Below are positions 3,291 through 13,415 of a stretch of 13,415 bases of DNA, piece after piece; position 1 is the stretch's first letter; each line of letters starts with the position of its first letter. This DNA is from a bacterium (lineage in GTDB: Bacteria; Zhuqueibacterota; Zhuqueibacteria; Zhuqueibacterales; Zhuqueibacteraceae): positions 1 to 13,415 of the forward strand of contig JBIOXB010000141.1 of NCBI GenBank assembly GCA_044869275.1. The letters are read 5' to 3'. The translations under genes were made by a program, and so were the position numbers. The notes under the pieces are model-generated. The model was not told the DNA's origin. It worked only from the letters and a program-made list of their open reading frames with translations, and made no database searches.

Positions 3291-3524
3291 ATGAATCCTC
3301 ACGCAAAAAATGTCAAAGCGTTGGACGATTATCAACTTGCGCTGGAATTTGAAAATTATGAGGGCTGGCGAATTTTCGATATGAAGCCCTATTTAAATCG
3401 TGGTATTTTTGTCCGGCTGCAAGATCGCGCTCTGCTTCAAGCGGCGCGAGTGGTGGCGGGTTCGTTGGAAAGCCGCCCCGCGGAGGCTATTGACTTCCAG
3501 ATGGCGGAAGCTTTGTCAACGTGA
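3291..3524 (+). pseudogene. DUF2442-family (TA-associated) protein, 3'-truncated at about 3470
   Basis: VKALDDYQLALEFEN...RIFDMKPYLNRGIF...ARVVAGSLE matches the DUF2442 pattern, but the expected W-P-x-x-x-D-L tail is replaced by unrelated sequence. Confidence 0.7.
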
Positions 3525-3704
3525 AGAAGTTAGATTACGGTAAATGAACATCCGATTCCCTTGCTGTTTCAACATAATTTCAGTTCGAAATGTTTTCTGC
3601 CGGAAAATACAAAGTCGTTTGGGAGGCCGGCGACAAATCACCGGAAATTTGTTGTTCTTGATTGCAAATGTTGATTTTTCAGACATGAAACAGCTTGTTT
3701 TGCA

Positions 3705-3734
3705 TTGCATTACATTCAAATGCTTTGCTATATT
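3705..3734 (+). promoter_or_regulatory. Putative sigma70 promoter
   Basis: TTGCAT (3705-3710), 18-nt spacer, extended -10 TGcTATATT (hexamer 3729-3734). Confidence 0.45.
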
Positions 3735-3762
3735 ATTACATAGAAGGTTCGGTAGATGTCGG

Positions 3763-3906
3763 GGTGTTCAGACAATCAGTATAGGAACACTAAAAGAATC
3801 TTTGATTCATCCTCGAGAAGTATTCAAAGCTGCAATACTTGCCAATGCGCACGCAATAATTGTGGGGCATAATCACCCAAGCGGAGATGCAACCCCAAGC
3901 AAATAG
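3763..3906 (+). pseudogene. radC: RadC/JAB-domain internal fragment
   Basis: [46 protein letters not shown] is the RadC signature; it stops before the final Asp of the JAMM motif and has no N-terminus. Confidence 0.85.
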
Positions 3907-3983
3907 GGCAGCCTCTCGACGATATTGATCTACTCATCGCCGGTATTGCAATCTCCAACAATTTTGTGCTATATTCCTATTGA
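3897..3983 (+). pseudogene. vapC: VapC/PIN toxin internal fragment joined to the radC fragment
   Basis: Manual translation [25 protein letters not shown], matching the PIN DLLIAxxA motif. Confidence 0.7.
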
Positions 3984-4051
3984 GTTGATCTTGCAGATTA
4001 CCCCAAGTCGACTCTCAATGAAGATGATAATAAAGTAAGGAAAAATTGAAC

Positions 4052-4279
4052 ATGTCCACCATTGAGCATGTGACTTTCTCGGAATTGGAGAAACTCTTGC
4101 GCACCTTGGCATTGCCGCCTGATACCCGCTTGACGGTAACTTTTGAAGACAAGGAAGCGACGCAAAGAGCCTTGAATAGGCAAAAAGCCTTGGAAGCAAT
4201 GAAACGGCTCAAAGGATCAGGCAATGGCAAGCTCGTCGCCACTTTATTATCGGAAAGAGAACGAGACGCCTTGTTATGA
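4052..4279 (+). CDS. Putative VapB-like antitoxin, 75 aa
   Basis: Small ORF with AAGGA at 4037-4041; ATGA overlap with the downstream PIN gene; antitoxin-like tail LKGSGNGKLVATLLSERERD. Confidence 0.75.
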   Translation: MSTIEHVTFSELEKLLRTLALPPDTRLTVTFEDKEATQRALNRQKALEAMKRLKGSGNGKLVATLLSERERDALL

Positions 4280-4709
4280 ACAAATATGTTTTGGATACTT
4301 CTGCGTTACTTGCCTTTATCGAAAACGAAGAAGGTGCTTCCGAAGTGGAAGAATTATTTAGGCAAGCGCTCGACGATAAGGTCGAGATTTCTATTTCAGT
4401 CATCAGTTGTATAGAAGCTGGATATGTTTCATGGAAGGAACAAGGCGAGAGAGTCGCTCGCGAGCGATTGCAGTTGACAGACGATTTACCTGTGTCGCAG
4501 GAAGCAGTAGATGAACGCTTGATAGAAATAATCGCAGGAATTAAGGCAACATGAGCGATGTCCTGTCCTTTGCTGATAGTTGTATTGCAGGTCTCGCAAA
4601 ATTCAAGCAGGCAAAACTGGTTCATAAAGATCCGGAATACGAACAGATCCAAAATGACATCGAGCAGTTAAAGCTGCCTTATAAGCAGGACACCAAGCAT
4701 GAACTTTAG
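4276..4709 (+). pseudogene. vapC: VapC/PIN toxin disrupted by a nonsense codon and a 5-bp duplication
   Basis: YVLDTSALLA N-terminus; in-frame TGA at 4552-4554; TGTCC duplicated (4559-4563, 4564-4568); shifted frame continues SFADSCIAGLAK...LVHKDPEYE...LPYK to TAG at 4707-4709. Confidence 0.88.
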
Positions 4710-4711
4710 CA

Positions 4712-5081
4712 ATGAACATCCGTCCAATCAAAAATGATGCAGATTATCAAGCCGCGCTTGTGGAAATAGAGCGTTTGTTCGAAGCCGCACCTGGTTCACC
4801 GGTGAGCGATCGTTTAGAGATATGGACTACGCTCGTTGAGGCTTACGAGGAACGGAAATACAGCATTCCGCCGCCAGACCCGATCGCAGCTATCAAGTAT
4901 CATATGGAAAGCCGCGGGTTTGTCTTCTCGTGAGTTGGAGCCGCATCTTGGGGACAGTGCAACAGTCGCAGAAGTGCTCAATCGCAAGCGTGCTTTAACG
5001 ATAGATATGATACGCCGGCTGCATACCGGGCTGGGCATTTCAGCGGAGGTCCTTATTCAATCCTACTCCCTGGCTGCTTAG
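4712..5081 (+). pseudogene. higA: HigA-type HTH antitoxin with a 1-nt insertion frameshift near 4916-4921
   Basis: MNIRPIKNDADYQAAL...PPPDPIAAIKYHMESRG continues in another frame as LSSRELEPHLG...VAEVLNRKRALTIDMIRRLHTGLGISAEVLI. No higB upstream. Confidence 0.85.
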
Positions 5082-5580: not shown

Positions 5581-8500
5581 ATGCCATCTATACAATCCCA
5601 GCCAAACACCGCCTGGGCCTTCATCAGCAGTGTTCTTCTTTGCAACATGATGGTGCACTTGGGGTGCACCCAGAAACCATCCGTCAAAACACAATACCAG
5701 CAGGTGCTTCTGGCAACAGGTTCAAATGACTGCGACAAGGCCATTGTACTCTGCAAGAAAATCATTTCCCAAGACCCCGCCTTTACGCCCGCGTACAAAA
5801 AACTCAGCCAGGCCTATCGCGACGCCAAACGTGCGGATGAAGCCATCTCTTACTTCGACTCTCTGCGTGCCGCGCAGCCGCAAAATGCCAATGCCTATTT
5901 GGGGCTCGGGCTTGCTTATGTTGCCGAAGAAAAGTATGAAACAGCGCTGGAAAATTATCCAACTGCCATCTCGTTGGCGCCACAACAGCCGGAAACATAT
6001 GCCGCACTCGTGGAGGCCTATGCAAAAATAAAAAAACGGAGCGAAGCTCTCGGCCGGCTCCGAGATTTGACCGCCGCATATCCCCATTTGGCCGCGCCCC
6101 ATTATGGCCTGGGTTATGCCTATTATGAAACTCAAACCCATTGGCAGGAATGTTTCGCGGCGCTGGCTCAGGCCACGGCTTTGGACTCCACCCTTCTCGA
6201 TGCCTACCGTCTGTGGGGAAACGGCTGCCTGCAAATCAACGACGAGGCCGCGGCGTTGCCGATTTTTGAGAAAGGGTTGCGCCTAACACAAGCGCAAAAT
6301 GATCTGGAATTTCAAAGTACTTTTGCCGGCAGCCTGGGGCTCGTCTACAAACGGTTGGGCAAGGATGATTTAGCTTTGGAGCGATTCAACCAAGCCGCGG
6401 CCTTGGCGCGCAGCACCGGTTATAAAACCAATGAGGCCGCCCTATATGGCAATATAGCGGCAATTTATCGGAACCGTGGCGAGCTGGAGCGCGCCATCGA
6501 GCACTACCACCGGGCCAGAGAGCTTCACCGGCAGGCCAAGTCATTAGTGGGTGAAGGCAATCAACTGAACAATCTCGGCAATCTTTATCATGAAGAATTC
6601 GGCGATCCGCAACAGGCCTTGCAATATTATGAAGAAGCGTTGCGGCTTTTTCGCCAGGCGGAGAATGCCGGCGCCATGGCCGAGGCGCTTGCCAATCTGG
6701 CCATGGTTCATCGTGAGCTGGGGGAATATGAGCAAGCCCTGGCCGAGAACGCAGAGGCTCTATCTCTGGCTGAAACAACCTCCCGGCGCCGGGTGCAAGC
6801 CAACGTTCTGGCCAATCGCGCGCTCCTTCATGCCGATCTCGCCGACACCGCGGCGGCCTTTCGCGACAATCGCGCGGCTCTGGCGCTGTACCGGCAAATG
6901 GGCGACATAGCCAAAGCCTCCGGCATGCTGGGTAATCAGAGCATATGGTATCGTGCGGCAGGAAACTATACGCTGGCTCTGCTACGCGCCCGGGAAGCAC
7001 TAACGCTCGTGCGCGCAGGCGGACAGAACAAAGCGCAGGAAGCCCTGGCACTGAATGCCGCCGGCATGACCTACAGCGCCATCGGCCAACCTCGCCGCGC
7101 GCTTTCGCTCTTTCATGAATCGCTGACATTGGCAGAAGTGGCGCGAGATACCTCCACCCAAGCCGGTGCCCTGGGCAATATCGCTCTGATGTATTCACAT
7201 CTAAGCCAGCCGGACAGCGCCCTGATTTATTATCGCCAGGCGCTGACACGCACTCGCCGGCGCACAGATGCGGAATATCAATCCCTGCTTTTCGCAAACA
7301 TGAGCCTGGCCCAGGGCGCTCTCCAGCGCTACCAGGCTGCGCTGGATACCGCCAAACTCGGGTTAAGCCTGGCCGAAAAAATTCATCACCCGGCCAGGCA
7401 GGGCATTTGCCTGAGGGCGGTTGGCTCGATGCATCTCAAACTGAAAAACTACGACGCCAGCCTGCGCGCCTTCCGCCGTTCGGGTGAGATTTACCAAAAG
7501 ATCGGCCAGCCGGTAGGGATTTGGCATGCTCATGCCGGGCAAGCTCGAGTCCATAAAGCGCGCCTGGAATACGCCCAAGCGATCGCAAGCTATCAAGCAG
7601 CGATTGCCACGATTGAAAAGGTGCGCGGTGGATTATTGGGTGAAGAGCAGCGCGGTGGCTTCTGGCAGGATAAGATGGAAGTTTATACCGAACTGGTCGA
7701 GGTATTTGCACGTCCTGCCCAGAACGATAGCGCGGCAACGTACGCCGGCAGAGCTCTGTATTACGCCGAGAGAGCTAAAGCTCGTGTGCTGCTTGATTTG
7801 TTGTCGCGTGGGAAGGTTTTTGAAAAATCGCCTGAGGCCATGCTGCGGGCTTATGTGACTTTGGGTAAACGCATACAGGCCCAATACGCCGTTATTGAGC
7901 GCGAGTTGTCCATGGACAAGCCCAATCAAAAATTCGTTGAAAACCTTGAAGGGGAGATCGAAGATCTACGCGTCCAGCAGGATTCCCTCGGCCTCACCAT
8001 ACAAAGGCAAAATTCGCATGAGGTGCCGGCGGTTCTAACCCTTGCAAGTATTCAACATCAAGTGCTTGCATCCGGCCAGGCGCTGCTTGAGTATCTGATC
8101 GGCGAAGAAGATTCATTTGTATGGCTAGTGACGAGAGACTCCTACATTTTTCAACCTCTCGGCCTCGGCCGCAAGCAGCTCCTGGAGCGCCTCGGCGCTG
8201 TCAGTCCGCTTCTTATCTCTCAAGAAGACTCCACTACTTCCGGCCAAAAGCCGCGATCTCCCATTACAGCTCACACCGAAGCCGCCTTCAGCTTTCCTGC
8301 ATTGCACGAACTCTATCAAGCTCTGATTCCCCAAACGCTGGAAAAGCACTTGCCGCTTCATACCGAACTCGTCATCGTGCCTGATGACGTCCTGTTCTAC
8401 CTTCCTTTCGAGATTCTGGTCACTCATATGCACGAGGGCCAGGCAGAGTATTTGATCGAAAAACACCCCATTTCTTATTCCTCGTCCGCCAGCCTCCTCG

Positions 8501-9240
8501 CCACGGAACTGTATCGTCCCACCCAAGCAGTACAAAACATCCTGGCCCTCGCCGATCCGCAGGTGCCAGCATTGGCGGAAGAGAGCCTGCTAATGCTGAC
8601 CGACGCTGGACTGCCCATGAACCGCCTCATCCGCAATGGTCGCCTAACGCCGTTGCCGCATGCCGTGCAGGAAATCGCGGCCATACGGGCGATCTTTCCG
8701 GGGGCGCAGGCACATACCGGGGCCGGCGCTTCCGAGGCGCGGTTCAAGGCCCGGGCCGGCGGTTTTCGGCTTCTGCATCTGGCCGTGCATGGCGTTGCCA
8801 ATGACCGCCAGCCGCACTTCTCGAGTGTGATGCTGGCGCCCAGCCGGCAACCCGAAGAAGATGGCGTCCTGCATGCTTATGAAATTTCAAACATGGACTT
8901 GCAGGCCGAAATGGTGGTGCTGAGTGCGTGCGAATCCGGCGCGGGCAGGCTGATGGCGGGCGAAGGCTTGCTGAGTTTGACGCGCGCCTTCCTGGGCGCG
9001 GGCGCGCATAGCGTGGTGGCCAGCCTGTGGCATGCCAACGACGCGGCCACCGCGCAATTAATGAAATTTTTTTATGCCGGTTTGAAAAAAGGCGAGAGCC
9101 GCAGCCGCGCCCTGCAGCGGGCCAAGATTGCCTTGCGCCACAGCGCGGGCCGGGAGAGCAATCCGTTTTATTGGGCGCCGTTTATTCTTATGGGCCGGAG
9201 CGGGCCATTGCAGCTCAACGAGCTTGTGGCAGCGCAGTGA
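5581..9240 (+). CDS. TPR-repeat, CHAT-domain (caspase HetF-associated with TPRs) cysteine protease, 1219 aa
   Basis: Long TPR array, AERAKAR linker, LVIVPDDVLFYLPFE, catalytic HLAVHG (His1070) and VVLSACESG (Cys1117), VVASLW and PFYWAPF; GGGGAG ribosome-binding site; hydrophobic N-terminus. Confidence 0.95.
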   Translation: MPSIQSQPNTAWAFISSVLLCNMMVHLGCTQKPSVKTQYQQVLLATGSNDCDKAIVLCKKIISQDPAFTPAYKKLSQAYRDAKRADEAISYFDSLRAAQPQNANAYLGLGLAYVAEEKYETALENYPTAISLAPQQPETYAALVEAYAKIKKRSEALGRLRDLTAAYPHLAAPHYGLGYAYYETQTHWQECFAALAQATALDSTLLDAYRLWGNGCLQINDEAAALPIFEKGLRLTQAQNDLEFQSTFAGSLGLVYKRLGKDDLALERFNQAAALARSTGYKTNEAALYGNIAAIYRNRGELERAIEHYHRARELHRQAKSLVGEGNQLNNLGNLYHEEFGDPQQALQYYEEALRLFRQAENAGAMAEALANLAMVHRELGEYEQALAENAEALSLAETTSRRRVQANVLANRALLHADLADTAAAFRDNRAALALYRQMGDIAKASGMLGNQSIWYRAAGNYTLALLRAREALTLVRAGGQNKAQEALALNAAGMTYSAIGQPRRALSLFHESLTLAEVARDTSTQAGALGNIALMYSHLSQPDSALIYYRQALTRTRRRTDAEYQSLLFANMSLAQGALQRYQAALDTAKLGLSLAEKIHHPARQGICLRAVGSMHLKLKNYDASLRAFRRSGEIYQKIGQPVGIWHAHAGQARVHKARLEYAQAIASYQAAIATIEKVRGGLLGEEQRGGFWQDKMEVYTELVEVFARPAQNDSAATYAGRALYYAERAKARVLLDLLSRGKVFEKSPEAMLRAYVTLGKRIQAQYAVIERELSMDKPNQKFVENLEGEIEDLRVQQDSLGLTIQRQNSHEVPAVLTLASIQHQVLASGQALLEYLIGEEDSFVWLVTRDSYIFQPLGLGRKQLLERLGAVSPLLISQEDSTTSGQKPRSPITAHTEAAFSFPALHELYQALIPQTLEKHLPLHTELVIVPDDVLFYLPFEILVTHMHEGQAEYLIEKHPISYSSSASLLATELYRPTQAVQNILALADPQVPALAEESLLMLTDAGLPMNRLIRNGRLTPLPHAVQEIAAIRAIFPGAQAHTGAGASEARFKARAGGFRLLHLAVHGVANDRQPHFSSVMLAPSRQPEEDGVLHAYEISNMDLQAEMVVLSACESGAGRLMAGEGLLSLTRAFLGAGAHSVVASLWHANDAATAQLMKFFYAGLKKGESRSRALQRAKIALRHSAGRESNPFYWAPFILMGRSGPLQLNELVAAQ

Positions 9241-9534: not shown

Positions 9535-12117
9535 TTACGGCAAATTTTCCTTTAACAAAGCAAGATTCTCGCGCACCGTTCTGGTGTTGGGATGATCCGG
9601 CCCAAGTGATTTTTCGAAAATCTCCAGGCTGCGGCGATAGAGCGGATCGGCGGCGGCATACTGGCCCTGAGCGCGCAGCAATTCCGCCAGGTTGTTCAAG
9701 CCGGTGGCGACAGAGGGATGCTCCGGCCCAAGTTGCTTTTCTTTAATCTCCAAGCTGCGGCGATAGAGCGGCTCGGCGGCGGTATACTGGCCCTGAGCGC
9801 GCAGCAATTCGGCCAGATTGTTCAAACCGGTGGCGACATATGGATGATCTCGCCCTAACTGTTTTTCCAAAATCTCCAGGCTGCGGCGAAAGAGCGGCTC
9901 GGCGGCGGCATACTGGCCCTGAGATTCTAGCAATCCCCCCAGGTTGTTCAAGTTGGTGGCAAGATCAGGATGGTCCCGTCCCTGATGTTTCTCTCGAATC
10001 GCAATCGCCCGGCGATAGAGTGGCTCGGCGGCGGCATACTGGCCCTGAGTGCTCAGCAAGAGCGCCAGGTTGTTCAAGCTGGTGGCAACAGATGGATGAT
10101 CCCGCCCAAGCTGCTTTTCTTCAATCTCCAGGCTGCGGCGATAGAGCGGCTCGGCGGCGGCATACTGGCCCTGAGCGCGCAGCAATTCCGCCAGGTTGTT
10201 CAAGCTCTGTGCAACATCGGGATGGTCTGGCCCAAGTTGCTTCTCTCGTATCTCCAGGCTGCGGTGATAGAGCGGCTCGGCGGCGGCATACTGGCCCTGA
10301 GTTTTCAGCAAGAGCGCCAGGTTGTTCAAGCCGGTGGCGACAAAGGGATGATCAGGCCCAAGCTGCTTTTCTCTAATCTCCAGGCTGCGGCGATAGAGCG
10401 GCTCGGCGGTGGCATATTGCGCACGGGAATATAGATAGATCCCAGTTTGATTGAACAGAGTCGCCACCTGCTTCAGTTCAGCAATGTACTTTTCCGCATA
10501 CTCGGCCACACTCAGTACATGCGCCAAGAGCGCCTCACACGCCGGCCAGTGGCGGACATCATCTGGGGACTTTTCTCCGTGTGGATAGGCGTCTGCCATG
10601 AGCTTGACCATTGCTGCGGCCCAAGTCTTTTTTAGCTCTGCCGGCATGCGATCTCGTGTCACCGCCTGTACCAGGCGATGTTGCGAAAAGCTCTCGCTGC
10701 TCGCTTCCACCAGCGAGTAGCGCGCCAGGCTGGCAATGGCGCGGTTGGTCTCCAAGGGTTTCGACAAAGCCTTGGATAGTTTCTTGGGCAAGTGTTCGCG
10801 CCCGTCAATTAACAGCGCGCGTGGAATGTTGTCCGGCGCGAGAAAGGATAGAGCATTGAGCAGGTCCACGGCTGCCGGGTCTTCAGTCTTGAGCTTTTGA
10901 AAGGAAATCTCCCAGGTGGTGGCCACGGTGGCGTCATATTCTAGCGGTTGGTGTTCTTGCAGCAACTCCGCGCGATATTGCTGGAACAAGGTCAGATAGT
11001 CAGCTATGCTCACGCCCGTGGCTTCCACATAAGCGCTGGCTTGTTCCAAGGCCAAAGGCAAGTCGCCCAGGGCTTGGGCCACATCATCTGCAGCCTGCTC
11101 GTCTTGAGCGCCACTACGGCGCAGTAAGAAGGCGATGGATTCGGCGCGTGGCCACACCTGTACTTTGAACGCATGGGCCACTTCTTTCCACTGTGGGTTA
11201 CGCGAGGTGATGAGCACTTGCCCGCTCATCGATTGTGGCAAATAGGGCAACAAATCCTGGGGTTGTTGGGCATTGTCAAAGATCAACAACCAGCCGGTGT
11301 GATGATCGAGCCATTGCCGCACCGCTTGAATGATGGCAGTTTGATCTTGAGCTTCCTTCTCGGGCAGCTCGAGTGCCGTCGCCAGTGCGGCAAAGTCTGC
11401 GGCCAGGGTGGCGGCTTCTTCCGCGCGCAGCCACCACACGATTTGAAACTCCGCGGCGAAGCGGTAGGCATATTCCAGCGCCAACTGGGTTTTGCCCACT
11501 CCGCCGAGGCCGTGAATGGCTTGCGCTTGCGTGAGGGCTGCGGTTTTGTCCTTGGTTAAGGCTGCGCGCAACTCGGCGAACAGCTCGGCCCGGCCGGTGA
11601 AATTGGGGTTGCGGTGGAGGTGCACATTCCAAATTGCGGGGAGCTCGCCGGAGACCTGAAAGCGTAGAAACCGCGCCAGTCGTTCCGCAGGTGTAGCGGG
11701 CGTTTGCGCAACCGGCTTTTGCGCGGAGAGTACCACTTCGCGTAACTGTGACATGCCCTGGCTGACAGAGCTGAAGTCGATATAGAGCAGATTAGAGAGC
11801 AGTGCCGGAAGCCCGGTTTTGTCCGCCCTGCAGGGGATGATCAATTTGCGAAGCGCGACGGCGCATGCCCATTCCAATTCCACCCAGTGCGACTGAGCCG
11901 CATCGCGCGACCAAACCAGCAGAACGGTATCGCACCACGCCAACGCGTCGCTGATCTCTTTAGGGAGGCTGTCACCGGCGCGCACTTCGGCATGATCGAC
12001 CCACACCTCGGCGCCGGCGGTCTTCAGCTCCGTTTCGAGCCGGCGCACCAATTCCTTGTCGGCCCAGGAATGGCTGATGAAGATTTTGGGGTGAAGAGTA
12101 CGCTGGGTGGCGGCCAT
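9535..12117 (-). CDS. TIR - STAND/NB-ARC-like NTPase - TPR protein (NLR-like; FxsT-type NTPase-TPR architecture), 860 aa
   Basis: TIR: KIFISHSWAD...WVD...SHWVELE (Glu82). NTPase: RNPNFTGR, Walker A GLGGVGKT, Walker B WLLIFDNA, VLITSR, LGDLPLAL. C-terminal 42-aa kinesin-light-chain-type TPRs. A GGGAGG site supports ATG at 12117 rather than 12150. Confidence 0.93.
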   Translation of the reverse strand: MAATQRTLHPKIFISHSWADKELVRRLETELKTAGAEVWVDHAEVRAGDSLPKEISDALAWCDTVLLVWSRDAAQSHWVELEWACAVALRKLIIPCRADKTGLPALLSNLLYIDFSSVSQGMSQLREVVLSAQKPVAQTPATPAERLARFLRFQVSGELPAIWNVHLHRNPNFTGRAELFAELRAALTKDKTAALTQAQAIHGLGGVGKTQLALEYAYRFAAEFQIVWWLRAEEAATLAADFAALATALELPEKEAQDQTAIIQAVRQWLDHHTGWLLIFDNAQQPQDLLPYLPQSMSGQVLITSRNPQWKEVAHAFKVQVWPRAESIAFLLRRSGAQDEQAADDVAQALGDLPLALEQASAYVEATGVSIADYLTLFQQYRAELLQEHQPLEYDATVATTWEISFQKLKTEDPAAVDLLNALSFLAPDNIPRALLIDGREHLPKKLSKALSKPLETNRAIASLARYSLVEASSESFSQHRLVQAVTRDRMPAELKKTWAAAMVKLMADAYPHGEKSPDDVRHWPACEALLAHVLSVAEYAEKYIAELKQVATLFNQTGIYLYSRAQYATAEPLYRRSLEIREKQLGPDHPFVATGLNNLALLLKTQGQYAAAEPLYHRSLEIREKQLGPDHPDVAQSLNNLAELLRAQGQYAAAEPLYRRSLEIEEKQLGRDHPSVATSLNNLALLLSTQGQYAAAEPLYRRAIAIREKHQGRDHPDLATNLNNLGGLLESQGQYAAAEPLFRRSLEILEKQLGRDHPYVATGLNNLAELLRAQGQYTAAEPLYRRSLEIKEKQLGPEHPSVATGLNNLAELLRAQGQYAAADPLYRRSLEIFEKSLGPDHPNTRTVRENLALLKENLP
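9590..10420 (-). repeat. 126-bp tandem repeat array encoding 42-aa TPR units (6 full plus partial)
   Basis: CTCCA(G/A)GCTGCGG anchor at 9622, 9748, 9874, 10126, 10252 and 10378, with a variant unit at about 10000; exact 126-bp period. Confidence 0.95.
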
Positions 12118-12135
12118 GGGGGAGTCCCTCCCAAG

Positions 12136-12202
12136 AAATTCAAAGCGCAAAATTCAAAGCACAAAATCCAAAAGTGGTTTTGGATTTTGTGCTTTGAATT
12201 TC
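12136..12202. repeat. Perfect 24-bp inverted repeat built from a 14-bp tandem unit
   Basis: AAATTCAAAGCACAAAATCCAAAA (12150-12173), loop GTGG, exact complement at 12178-12201; extra unit AAATTCAAAGCGCA at 12136-12149. Confidence 0.92.
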
Positions 12203-12230
12203 GGTTTTCTCAAATTTGCTTTATGGGGGG

Positions 12231-12259
12231 ATTATACGAATTGGTGCGGCATTACTCAA
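12231..12259 (-). promoter_or_regulatory. Putative sigma70 promoter of the TIR-NTPase-TPR gene
   Basis: Minus strand: TTGAGT (12259-12254), 17 nt, TATAAT (12236-12231). Confidence 0.65.
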
Positions 12260-12328
12260 ACGGACTTAATCGCACTCCGATTCGGTAACGTCAACGAAAT
12301 GATCGAATGCCAGTTTGAATGGCCAAAA

Positions 12329-12427
12329 CTACGGAAAGTACCTGTAGATTTCTTTCCGATGCAGTAGCTGTTTCTCTTTAATCTTCTTGAGATCTCGAGC
12401 AAAGCTTTTTCTGAATTCTACCGTCAC
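12329..12427 (-). pseudogene. relE: RelE/ParE-family toxin with a large in-frame internal deletion (32 aa left)
   Basis: Manual translation from GTG: MTVEFRKSFARDLKKIKEKQLL-HRKEIYRYFP*, which is the RelE N-terminus joined directly to its C-terminus; GTGA overlap with the upstream antitoxin. Confidence 0.85.
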
Positions 12428-12633
12428 GCTTTCGCCTCGATGATCTTGTAGATCTCTTGCTTGCTCGCCGCTTTCGTAGTCTCGCCTTCTTTTATAGCAT
12501 TAACAAGGGCAATATCCTCTAATGCCTCTGCAAAAAGCTCCGAGAATAAAGCCCTTCTTTCCTCCAGCACTTCAATTAATGCCGTCTTTAGTACATTCTT
12601 TAGACGGGTCTCATCAAAAACTACTTGTTCCAT
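12424..12633 (-). CDS. Putative antitoxin of a RelE-type module, 69 aa
   Basis: Small acidic helical protein (EALEDIALVNAIKEGE) with a GGAG site, translationally coupled to the relE remnant. Confidence 0.8.
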   Translation of the reverse strand: MEQVVFDETRLKNVLKTALIEVLEERRALFSELFAEALEDIALVNAIKEGETTKAASKQEIYKIIEAKA

Positions 12634-12692
12634 TTCAATCTCCGAAAGAAAAGTTGGTAAAATGGGGCCTCATCAACAGCAACTATACAATA

Positions 12693-12725
12693 TTTGAATA
12701 TAGCATAAATTCAAAATTAAGCAAT
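12693..12725 (-). promoter_or_regulatory. Putative TA promoter with overlapping operator palindrome
   Basis: TTTGAAT (12693-12699)/ATTCAAA (12709-12715) palindrome overlaps a minus-strand TTGCTT-16 nt-TATATT with an extended TG. Confidence 0.45.
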
Positions 12726-12943
12726 CATCGTTTGCAGATGCAGGAGCAGTGGTGGGAAATTTGTAAAGCGTTCGTAATTTGTTCTACTTGAGTACATTTT
12801 TGCCAACGATGCGGTTGCGCAGAGCTGTTATATTGAGATGGCGTCTGGAATGAATTGAGCGTCAAAAACAATTGCTGAACGAGTACCCTGTGGTTATTGA
12901 TTGCAAGCGCTTTTCTGCTTCAAGCAGATGGGGATGAGATGAT

Positions 12944-13415
12944 TTACTGCAATTTCTCCTGTAACAGAGCAAGGTTCTCGCGCACCGTTCTGGTGTTGGG
13001 ATGATGCGGCCCAAGCGTTTTTCCGAAAATCTCCAGGCTGCGGCGATAGAGCGGCTCGGCGGCGGCATACTGGCCCCGAGATTCCAGCAATCTCGCCAGG
13101 TTGTTCAAACTCTGTGCAACATCAGGATGCTCTGGTGCTAGTTGCTGCTCTCGTATCTCCAGGCTGCGACGATAGAGCGGCTCAGCGGCAGCATACTGGC
13201 CCTGAGTTTTCAGCAAGAGCGCCAGGTTGTTCAAACTCTTTGCAACATCGGGATGGTCTGGTCCAAGTTGCTTCTCTAGTATCTCCAGGCTGCGACGAAA
13301 GAGCGGCTCCGCGGCGGCATACTGGCCCTGAGATTTCAGCAATTCCGCCAGGTTGTTCAAATCTGTGGCCACTTCGGGATGTTCCGGTCCATAAGCTTTC
13401 TCATCAATCTCCAGG
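12944..13415 (-). CDS. 3' end of a paralogous 42-aa TPR-repeat protein (runs off the window)
   Basis: Frame is open to the edge (LEIDEKAYGPEHPEVATDLNNLA...); 126-bp anchors at 13031, 13157, 13283 and 13409; the cap HPNTRTVRENLALL is identical to that of the TIR gene. Confidence 0.92.
   Translation of the reverse strand, partial: LEIDEKAYGPEHPEVATDLNNLAELLKSQGQYAAAEPLFRRSLEILEKQLGPDHPDVAKSLNNLALLLKTQGQYAAAEPLYRRSLEIREQQLAPEHPDVAQSLNNLARLLESRGQYAAAEPLYRRSLEIFGKTLGPHHPNTRTVRENLALLQEKLQ

Follow-up and report, generated by a model that had tools for sequence, protein, structure and literature searches.

Fungal NLRs of high internal conservation (HIC) include the TPR-sensor NB-ARC/TPR protein Pa_2_10340 of Podospora and the HNWD family (PMC4986451, PMC13449251), the criterion being either 85% over 100 aa (PMC4986451) or a Psim of 0.7 or more (PMC13449251). 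The locus described here, which lies in a window of 13,415 nt (the whole stretch of DNA analysed, contig C141), resembles them in its effector-NBD-repeat layout, in nearly identical units for which kinesin light chain is the model, in sites on the predicted concave face that vary and are apparently under positive selection, and in repeat exchange between genes. It differs in its bacterial host and TIR effector, while the fungi show repeat-number polymorphism and a role in cell death. Gene 1 has the effector, NB-ARC/NACHT and repeats of an HIC NLR with high internal conservation (0.85, measured as identity to consensus, which approximates Psim and does not derive from T-REKS), as well as the features of selected concave sites, modest here and strong in pooled homologs, and of repeat exchange within and between genes, gene 1 alone showing none.

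Bacterial proteins of NLR architecture with internally conserved TPR or WD repeats have been described (bioRxiv 10.1101/2020.01.06.895854; PMC13449251, section 12). As far as the available text of these sources goes, their NB-ARC/TPR members have units 80-90% identical, are proposed to diversify like fungal NLRs and have shuffling inferred from internal conservation, whereas the present analysis tested for recombination, exchange across paralogs and selection at sites and, unlike in the published proteins, the effector is fused to the NB-ARC/TPR. Shuffling, established together with diversifying selection for fungal NLRs, had thus already been proposed in bacteria (2020, 2026), and the locus is a well-tested case. 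The NB-ARC-TPR genes of Ectocarpus likewise have shuffled units of 126 nt and 42 aa with signs of diversifying selection, but there the units are exons, whereas here introns are absent and exchange occurs inside units (PMC3341825).

The TIR-AP-ATPase-TPR proteins in conflict systems that process peptides (PMC7159879) and NF040586, the TPR protein of the FxSxx-COOH system, share the combination of TIR, AP-ATPase and TPR, and the NF040586 cut-off of 300 bits is passed with 528 (gene 1) and 433. Membership of the FxSxx system was rejected on its partner genes, with no FxsB radical SAM over cut-off in the genome (94% complete) and no FxSxx-ending short ORF in a pattern search of C141 and C227. Avs and bacterial NACHT proteins (as summarised in PMC10907252) are similarly tripartite STANDs with a TPR sensor and an enzymatic effector, from which the locus differs in its NB-ARC clade and exchangeable near-identical sensor units; PADLOC gave no curated Avs or NACHT defence model match and no defence model spanning the whole protein, only domain-level matches to TIR and TPR.

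Architecture and setting of the two genes

The TIR-STAND-TPR architecture put forward in the preliminary description was recovered in gene 1 by both profiles and structure model (Table 1), with Pfam domains TIR_2, NB-ARC, DUF7779 and TPR_10/12, and the 860-aa form of the product is present in the protein collection. Glu82 of the TIR domain, invariant in 8/8 homologs, falls in the alignment column of the conserved glutamate in AbTIR 8g83, which we take to be the catalytic residue in bacterial TIR NADases. The core has profile matches to AfsR (the best) and Roq1, and the low-confidence TIR-NB-ARC structure model (pLDDT 65) resembles RPP1, NRC and Apaf-1, the proteins of both genes being built like plant immune receptors. 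The TPR array was modelled with a pLDDT of 94.6, its best structural match being the KLC1 TPR.

Table 1. Features of the window, with positions and strand
Feature	Positions	Strand	Remarks
TPR-CHAT protease gene	5581-9240	+	convergent; fixed neighbour marking the slot, outside the array
Gene 1	9535-12117	-	intact 860-aa TIR-NB-ARC-TPR (NLR-like STAND) protein; ORF and Pfam
C-terminal capping helix and stop, gene 1	9535-9594	-	homologous to gene-2 counterpart
Six 126-bp TPR units, gene 1	9595-10350	-	42 aa, kinesin-light-chain type, three variable blocks each
56-nt tract	10205-10260	-	53/56 vs 13236-13291; spans unit-1 linker and unit-2 block 1
44-nt tract	10286-10329	-	identical to 13191-13234; gene-1 unit 1, its block 2 with constant flanks
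Pre-TPR cap and first degenerate TPR, gene 1	10351-10632	-	paralog cap only 42% identical
NB-ARC/STAND core, gene 1	10633-11616	-	Walker B, GxP motif, winged helix/DUF7779
Walker A of NB-ARC, gene 1	11488-11511	-	
TIR_2 effector domain, gene 1	11749-12084	-	Glu82 at catalytic-glutamate position of bacterial TIR NADases
REP-like hairpin	12136-12208	.	upstream of gene 1
RelB-like antitoxin-family ORF, 69 aa	12424-12633	-	between gene 1 and gene 2; PF25734, 63 bits
Gene 2, 3′ part	12944-13415	-	three units (13004-13381) and cap; runs off contig C141
Contig-terminal 70 nt	13346-13415	-	identical to first unit junction of C227 array, divergent beyond

The N-terminal part of gene 2, which extension of the contig had been expected to reveal, is very likely the TIR-NB-ARC gene at C227:1-2149, encoding TIR-NB-ARC, three units and part of a fourth. 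This contig carries the only other TIR-NB-ARC-TPR core of the gene-1 kind in the genome, 90% identical to that of gene 1, and is presumably adjacent to C141, whose terminal 70-nt match to it could be an internal duplicate or an alternative allele. Synteny in the sister species G001 was uninformative on this adjacency, its TPR-CHAT gene and its sigma/anti-sigma pair being on separate contigs with other neighbours. An alignment of 208 nt, which takes in the cap, the 3′ flank and the greater part of the last unit, shows the 3′ ends of genes 1 and 2 to be 88% identical. At the other end of the array the paralog carries a swapped pre-TPR cap module, the boundary of the swap lying near residue 495, and one contig from run X1 spans this boundary in gene 1 with 0 differences.

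A REP-like hairpin similar to that upstream of gene 1 lies upstream of the C227 paralog, with ~63 such loci genome-wide, and the RelB-like antitoxin ORF is probably a passenger. In G001 the slot beside the TPR-CHAT gene appears to be filled by NACHT-CLec and a reverse transcriptase (RT), the NACHT-CLec sensor being of the diversity-generating retroelement (DGR) type and probably sharing the slot with a TPR remnant across a gap between contigs C25 and C368; a search of two loci gave no TR/VR pair for it. The effectors are swappable, other N-termini being found on homologous arrays. Glu82, the swappable effectors and NACHT-CLec in the same slot together suggest an immune function for the TIR-NB-ARC-TPR pair. 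Conspecific alleles were not found, the best metagenome matches being 33-55% identical and the best other genome 76%. Runs X3 and X4 held only small shares, X4 showing ~90% relatives.

Mosaic units and probable exchange between paralogs

The units are 85% identical to consensus in both genes, with a mean pairwise identity of 0.76, and the AAC-AAC codons of their Asn-Asn pair are nearly invariant; homologous arrays have 3-11 units each. The motifs listed in the preliminary description are all present in the units of genes 1 and 2, and the two variable blocks that it named are there, but variation is not confined to them, a third block at the end of helix B and in the linker (TPR positions 24, 31 and 34) having been overlooked. 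The blocks are combined as mosaics. As had been noticed, the three copies of AELLRA in gene 1 stand behind three different upstream blocks; their codons are identical, and the motif is found once more on C227. The reported tract matches between the two genes were likewise reproduced, at 44/44 and, for the adjacent 56 nt, 53/56. The 44-nt identity was rejected as stand-alone proof of exchange, since constant framework makes up most of the tract and stretches of 58 and 47 nt are likewise identical between the paralogs' non-repeat cores.

For the 12 units of both genes, PHI was significant whether computed from nucleotides (p = 0.0003-0.002), codons (0.0002-0.0004) or third positions (0.005-0.016), weakening under an alternative unit framing to 0.002-0.005 by site and 0.04-0.07 by codon block. 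None of 150 no-recombination simulations, run on a single tree with rates set for each site and under two rate settings, reached the observed ratio of 0.71 (null 0.98-0.99, sd 0.07). The signal requires both genes, with p = 0.004 for the nine units of the window and none for the six units of gene 1 alone (p = 0.78). Removal of the two contig-end units gave p = 0.0002, and removal of the gene-end units as well, leaving eight, p = 0.088. Single small homologous arrays gave significant PHI in only 2/10 testable cases and the pooled arrays of another genome, G004, gave p = 0.23.

Mean unit identity is 0.78-0.81 within genes, 0.79-0.82 between genes and 0.62-0.76 to other genomes; units group by genome rather than by gene, as in concerted evolution, and the strict clustering by gene and position that would speak against a mosaic was not seen. 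Arrays alike at 0.83 occur in G004 on a pair of genes whose ATPase cores are unrelated. When gene-2 units were painted from gene-1 units, 22 synonymous mismatches were found against 39.8 (sd 5.6) expected from core divergence (P = 0.0025), total mismatches being not significant (P = 0.12). Having fewer synonymous mismatches than core divergence predicts points to unit exchange after paralog duplication. The mosaic within and between paralogs proposed earlier is thus upheld by PHI, the simulations and the exchange test.

Variable positions and selection

Variation sits at TPR positions -1, 2, 3, 9, 12, 13 and 31, mostly in the predicted concave binding groove, in keeping with the expectation of the preliminary description; TPR numbering and a helical wheel, rather than model coordinates, served to assign this face. 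Positions 2, 9, 12 and 13 are concave ligand positions (PMC1261162). The exposed face of helix B is conserved, with 4 changes against 23.8 expected under neutrality. Position 31 corresponds to R312 of KLC2, which we take to be a cargo contact, a literature search having found no paper for it.

In this genome M2a was favoured over M1a on block trees (2dL = 7.9, p about 0.02, sites 9, 12 and 31) with an omega of 3.8, a quantity that multi-base codon changes can inflate and in which high GC3 (0.49-0.91) can depress dS; 0/30 recombining null simulations reached this 2dL. Omega at groove sites is thus above 1 where dN/dS well below 1 would have counted against the earlier proposal. The 16 other arrays (91 units) gave 2dL = 56 on single trees, for which the test has 3/30 false positives under recombination, and 37 on block trees, with sites 9, 3, 12, 2 and -1 ranking highest. 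Positive selection therefore appears modest in this genome and strong in the 16 homologous arrays pooled. By tree-free counts, concave sites in this genome show no significant excess (23 against 25.5 expected), and the groove codons of the homologs also have elevated synonymous variation (0.88 against 0.51 array-wide).

Alternative explanations and significance

Our preferred reading, which we consider probable, is that two paralogous TIR-NB-ARC-TPR genes, with unit mosaics likely arising by recombination, encode predicted NLR-like receptors in which reshuffling of groove residues would alter which invader protein is detected. An unlikely alternative is passive concerted evolution, the groove varying because it is unconstrained in a regulatory STAND protein of the AfsR or FxSxx-system type whose ligand is fixed or loose. 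The tree-free dN/dS of about 0.9-1.25 in this genome, the elevated synonymous rate at the same codons in homologs, the AfsR profile match and the passing of the NF040586 cut-off would all fit such a protein, yet convex positions, equally exposed, stay conserved, amino-acid change is in excess, block-2 sites changing 3-4x more than neighbouring synonymous sites, and M2a is favoured with block trees. The N-terminus is moreover a TIR enzyme and no DNA-binding domain, and the lack of FxsB over cut-off in the genome weighs against the FxSxx variant.

That the mosaic is a short-read repeat assembly artefact, or the alleles of two strains mixed into apparent paralogs, is improbable, even though the genome is metagenome-assembled, the gene-2 array is where both contigs are broken and the end of C141 repeats 70 nt of C227. 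The contig ends overlap by 127 nt and no exact array repeat exceeds 70 nt, so the assembly graph resolves the arrays; the junction of the preliminary description spans ~100 nt and the signal survives the dropping of contig-end units. Contigs of runs X1 and X2 hold both cores, at a depth in X1 of 8-10 beside single-copy DNA at 12, which is weak evidence as X1 is possibly the source sample. Mutation of the repeats by a DGR is more improbable still and was rejected as the cause of unit variation: the genome holds an intact DGR on C184 and several variable codons have C or T as their last base, but the template repeat on C184 corresponds to its own CLec target alone and not to the arrays, the AAC-AAC codons are kept, and variable columns are not adenine-specific (12/28 A columns against 27/98 others).

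Under the preferred reading of reshuffled NLR-like receptors, the constant DNA between blocks would recombine within and between paralogs, by homologous recombination or gene conversion. An extended peptide may bind the groove with its backbone held by the invariant Asn-Asn pair, positions -1, 2, 3, 9, 12, 13 and 31 setting specificity, upon which the NB-ARC would exchange nucleotide and oligomerise and the TIR would break down NAD+, leading to cell death or arrest, with phage or another invader as the putative selecting agent. More tentatively, the paralog pair might be a two-gene donor library from which blocks and entire caps pass from gene to gene and from genome to genome under invader selection, the TPR-CHAT slot being a dedicated variable-sensor site that uses repeat shuffling here and a DGR-type NACHT-CLec in the sister species; these two unrelated engines in one slot would then be interchangeable for one job.

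The locus and the 16 homologous arrays provide direct bacterial sequence tests of recombination, cross-paralog exchange and site selection, and seven positions per unit are named for mutation. If the immune reading is true, the arrays would represent RT-free sensor diversification in bacteria, and the family would be a naturally occurring library in which modular peptide binders are linked to a TIR read-out.

The two genes and their contigs

The window comprises the entire contig C141 of a genome of 6.67 Mb in 255 contigs, and the sequencing runs containing it carry the label soil metagenome. The domains of gene 1 (see table) bear out the TIR-STAND-TPR architecture proposed in the preliminary description. 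Gene 1 contains six 126-bp units and the open gene 2 contains three, and in a genome-wide search the repeat was found outside C141 only on contig C227, whose end bears a TIR-NB-ARC gene left open within its array. Since the genome holds just two TIR-NB-ARC cores of this kind and both C-terminal caps lie on C141, C227 very likely carries the 5′ half of gene 2, the join being inferred rather than bridged. The final 70 nt of C141 match the first unit junction of C227 exactly and diverge beyond it, so that either gene 2 has a recent internal duplicate or two alleles of gene 2 exist.

A graph misjoin is unlikely because the longest exact repeat among the arrays is 70 nt, while contig-end overlaps reach 127 nt, which is also their most frequent value. 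Both cores are present on contigs of two sequencing runs of one study, X1 and X2, of which X1 may be the source, with X1 contigs spanning the stretch from the gene 2 stop to the gene 1 start, and the cap boundary, with 0 differences. The X1 depth of 8-10 at each core vs. 12 in adjoining single-copy DNA weakly fits two paralogs rather than alleles. Unit order is taken from the assembly.

Features of the window and of further loci (L numbers)
Feature	Position	Strand	Remarks
Gene 1	9535-12117	minus	intact, 860 aa; TIR_2, NB-ARC, DUF7779, TPR_10/12 domains
Gene 2	12944-13415	minus	open at contig end
TPR-CHAT protease gene	5581-9240		converges on gene 1; N-terminal signal-like segment
REP-like hairpin	12136-12208		upstream of both paralogs; ~63 loci genome-wide
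Short/broken toxin-antitoxin-like and RadC ORF cluster	3291-5081		PIN fragment, truncated JAB domain, split HigA-like ORF (by eye)
ECF sigma and anti-sigma-like pair	L021:2842-5122		upstream of C227 gene
Intact diversity-generating retroelement (DGR)	L033:1-2373 (C184 of this genome, ~3.7-6.1 kb)		FGE-sulfatase/CLec target, bAvd, template repeat, RT
RT beside Cas1-like gene	L032:1231-3364		by eye
Retron-like RT behind HTH gene	L034:1050-2310

Mosaic structure and probable exchange of units

The units are mosaics of blocks within a homogenised framework and with a variable groove. Informative sites of the 12 units fall in three blocks with constant DNA between, and the nearest neighbour of a unit switches block by block. 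PHI over the 12 units gave p = 0.0002-0.002 (third positions, p = 0.005-0.016), and in single-tree simulations with site-specific rates the observed ratio was reached in 0/150 under each of two settings. Without the two contig-end units PHI gave p = 0.0002, without contig-end and gene-end units p = 0.088, and on the units of gene 1 alone there was no signal (p = 0.78); p < 0.05 was reached in just 2 of the 10 testable homologous arrays. The two matching tracts first pointed out between the genes were reproduced exactly (44/44 and 53/56), but the 44-nt match is rejected as stand-alone evidence, the cores themselves, 89% identical in DNA, having common exact runs of 58 and 47 nt, and the mosaic claim holds through the pattern across all 12 units.

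Recombination within and between the paralogs, as envisaged in the preliminary description, is supported by PHI, by a painting test and by the units not grouping by gene, mean unit identity being 0.78-0.81 within genes and 0.79-0.82 between them vs. 0.62-0.76 to four other genomes. Six gene 2 units painted from gene 1 units showed 22 synonymous mismatches vs. 39.8 (sd 5.6) expected of units diverged as much as the cores (P = 0.0025), with total mismatches not significant (P = 0.12). As synonymous mismatches fall below the core-divergence expectation, exchange after duplication is favoured. The C227 gene shows a cap swap near residue 495: its pre-TPR cap (L021:400-670) is 42% identical to that of gene 1 and 62% to that of a homolog in genome G004 with a core only 55% identical, although the cores of the two paralogs are 90% identical. 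In G004, arrays 83% identical in DNA are carried by a TIR-NB-ARC gene and by a gene with an unrelated ATPase core (L004, L023; C118, C132). NB-ARC-TPR genes built on 42-aa units also lie in tandem or in clusters in other genomes, two in L028/L046 and several in L098.

Variable sites and tests of selection on the sensor

The sensor is modelled as a helix-pair solenoid (pLDDT 94.6) with kinesin light chain TPR as nearest match. Variation falls at TPR positions -1, 2, 3, 9, 12, 13, 31 and 34, with the Asn5-Asn6 pair invariant across units. TPR positions 2, 5, 6, 9, 12 and 13 are concave-face ligand contacts in PMC1261162, and variation at 2, 9, 12 and 13 agrees with the concave-face location expected from the outset, the face being assigned from TPR numbering and a helical wheel. 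On the wheel -1, 2, 9 and 13 face away from the buried side, which 3 and 12 flank. In KLC2, R251 and N287 bind cargo (PMC5450233). By our arithmetic their spacing, 36 residues, agrees with TPR positions 12 and 6 when these are counted along KLC1. KLC2 R312 would be a cargo contact at TPR position 31.

Site-wise dN/dS had been suggested earlier as a check. Codon models favour selection (2dL 11.8 on one tree; 7.9 on block trees, with omega 3.8 and sites 9, 12 and 31). Tree-free counts in this genome place the groove at about neutral (23 vs. 25.5), while helix B is conserved on its exposed face, with 4 changes against a neutral expectation of 23.8. Among recombining null simulations 3/30 reached 2dL 11.8 on one tree and 0/30 reached 7.9 on block trees. 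An outside test started from 47 arrays of at least three units, with own-genome, duplicate and RT loci skipped; once three duplicate loci had been dropped, along with cap-type units and any array with <4 unique units or <75% identity, 16 arrays and 91 units were left, two arrays being from one genome. In these, six helix-A sites chosen in this genome had 0.95 amino-acid changes per site vs. 0.51 synonymous array-wide, with 0.88 synonymous changes at the same six codons. Pooled M2a on the 16 arrays, uncalibrated by simulation, gave 2dL 56 and 37 with top sites 9, 3, 12, 2 and -1. High GC3 and multi-base codon changes qualify these selection tests.

Genomic setting, proposed mechanism and known systems

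Among 20 relatives, close orthologs of the TPR-CHAT gene and the sigma/anti-sigma-like pair were found only in the sister genome G001, of the same genus, where the slot after the TPR-CHAT ortholog holds NNH2, NACHT-FGE-sulfatase and RT genes in place of the TIR-NB-ARC-TPR pair (L127:9143-13633; C25). Another G001 contig (C368, L129:500-800) carries, directly after a bAvd fragment, the broken remains of a TPR tail: one unit, the cap and the 3′ flank, 79-87% identical to the window tails. These remains are a trace of the loss of the gene family there. No template repeat for the G001 NACHT-FGE-sulfatase was found in the two loci searched. In the DGR on C184, template adenines account for 14 of the 15 TR/VR mismatches in 90 nt, but this element does not target the arrays and a DGR was rejected as the source of their diversity. 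A short TIR_2 N-terminal fragment lies 5′ of the C227 paralog (L021:2716-2796).

Crossovers or conversion tracts would resolve in the constant stretches between blocks, by which specificity blocks may be recombined within and between the two genes, and a bound ligand would release the NB-ARC switch, allowing the protein to oligomerise and the TIR to be activated. The nearest solved relatives of the core are AfsR, Roq1, RPP1 and Apaf-1. The alignment places Glu82 at the conserved AbTIR glutamate, the catalytic residue of bacterial TIR NADases, and Glu82 is invariant in 8/8 homologs. The N-termini of homologous arrays are mostly TIR, others appearing by eye to be nuclease-, nucleosidase- or ParA-like.

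The gene 1 protein passes NF040586 but FxSxx partners were not found, and the Avs models gave no match to it. All the traits of the mosaic are also found in the fungal high internal conservation (HIC) TPR NLRs, as far as the accessible text of PMC4986451 describes them, and likewise in the brown-algal 126-nt TPR exons in the sections available of PMC3341825. HIC NLRs are present in bacteria (PMC13449251, in part), and bacterial NLRs with 80-90% identical repeats have been noted and a like diversification proposed (bioRxiv 10.1101/2020.01.06.895854, in part). The literature searched, with most subscription papers, figures and supplements outside its scope, held no paper testing recombination or site selection on bacterial NB-ARC-TPR units. 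The mosaic feature is real and its reading as a candidate variable-sensor NLR array is supported; bacterial NLRs with conserved repeats are already known, and the locus adds another such member.
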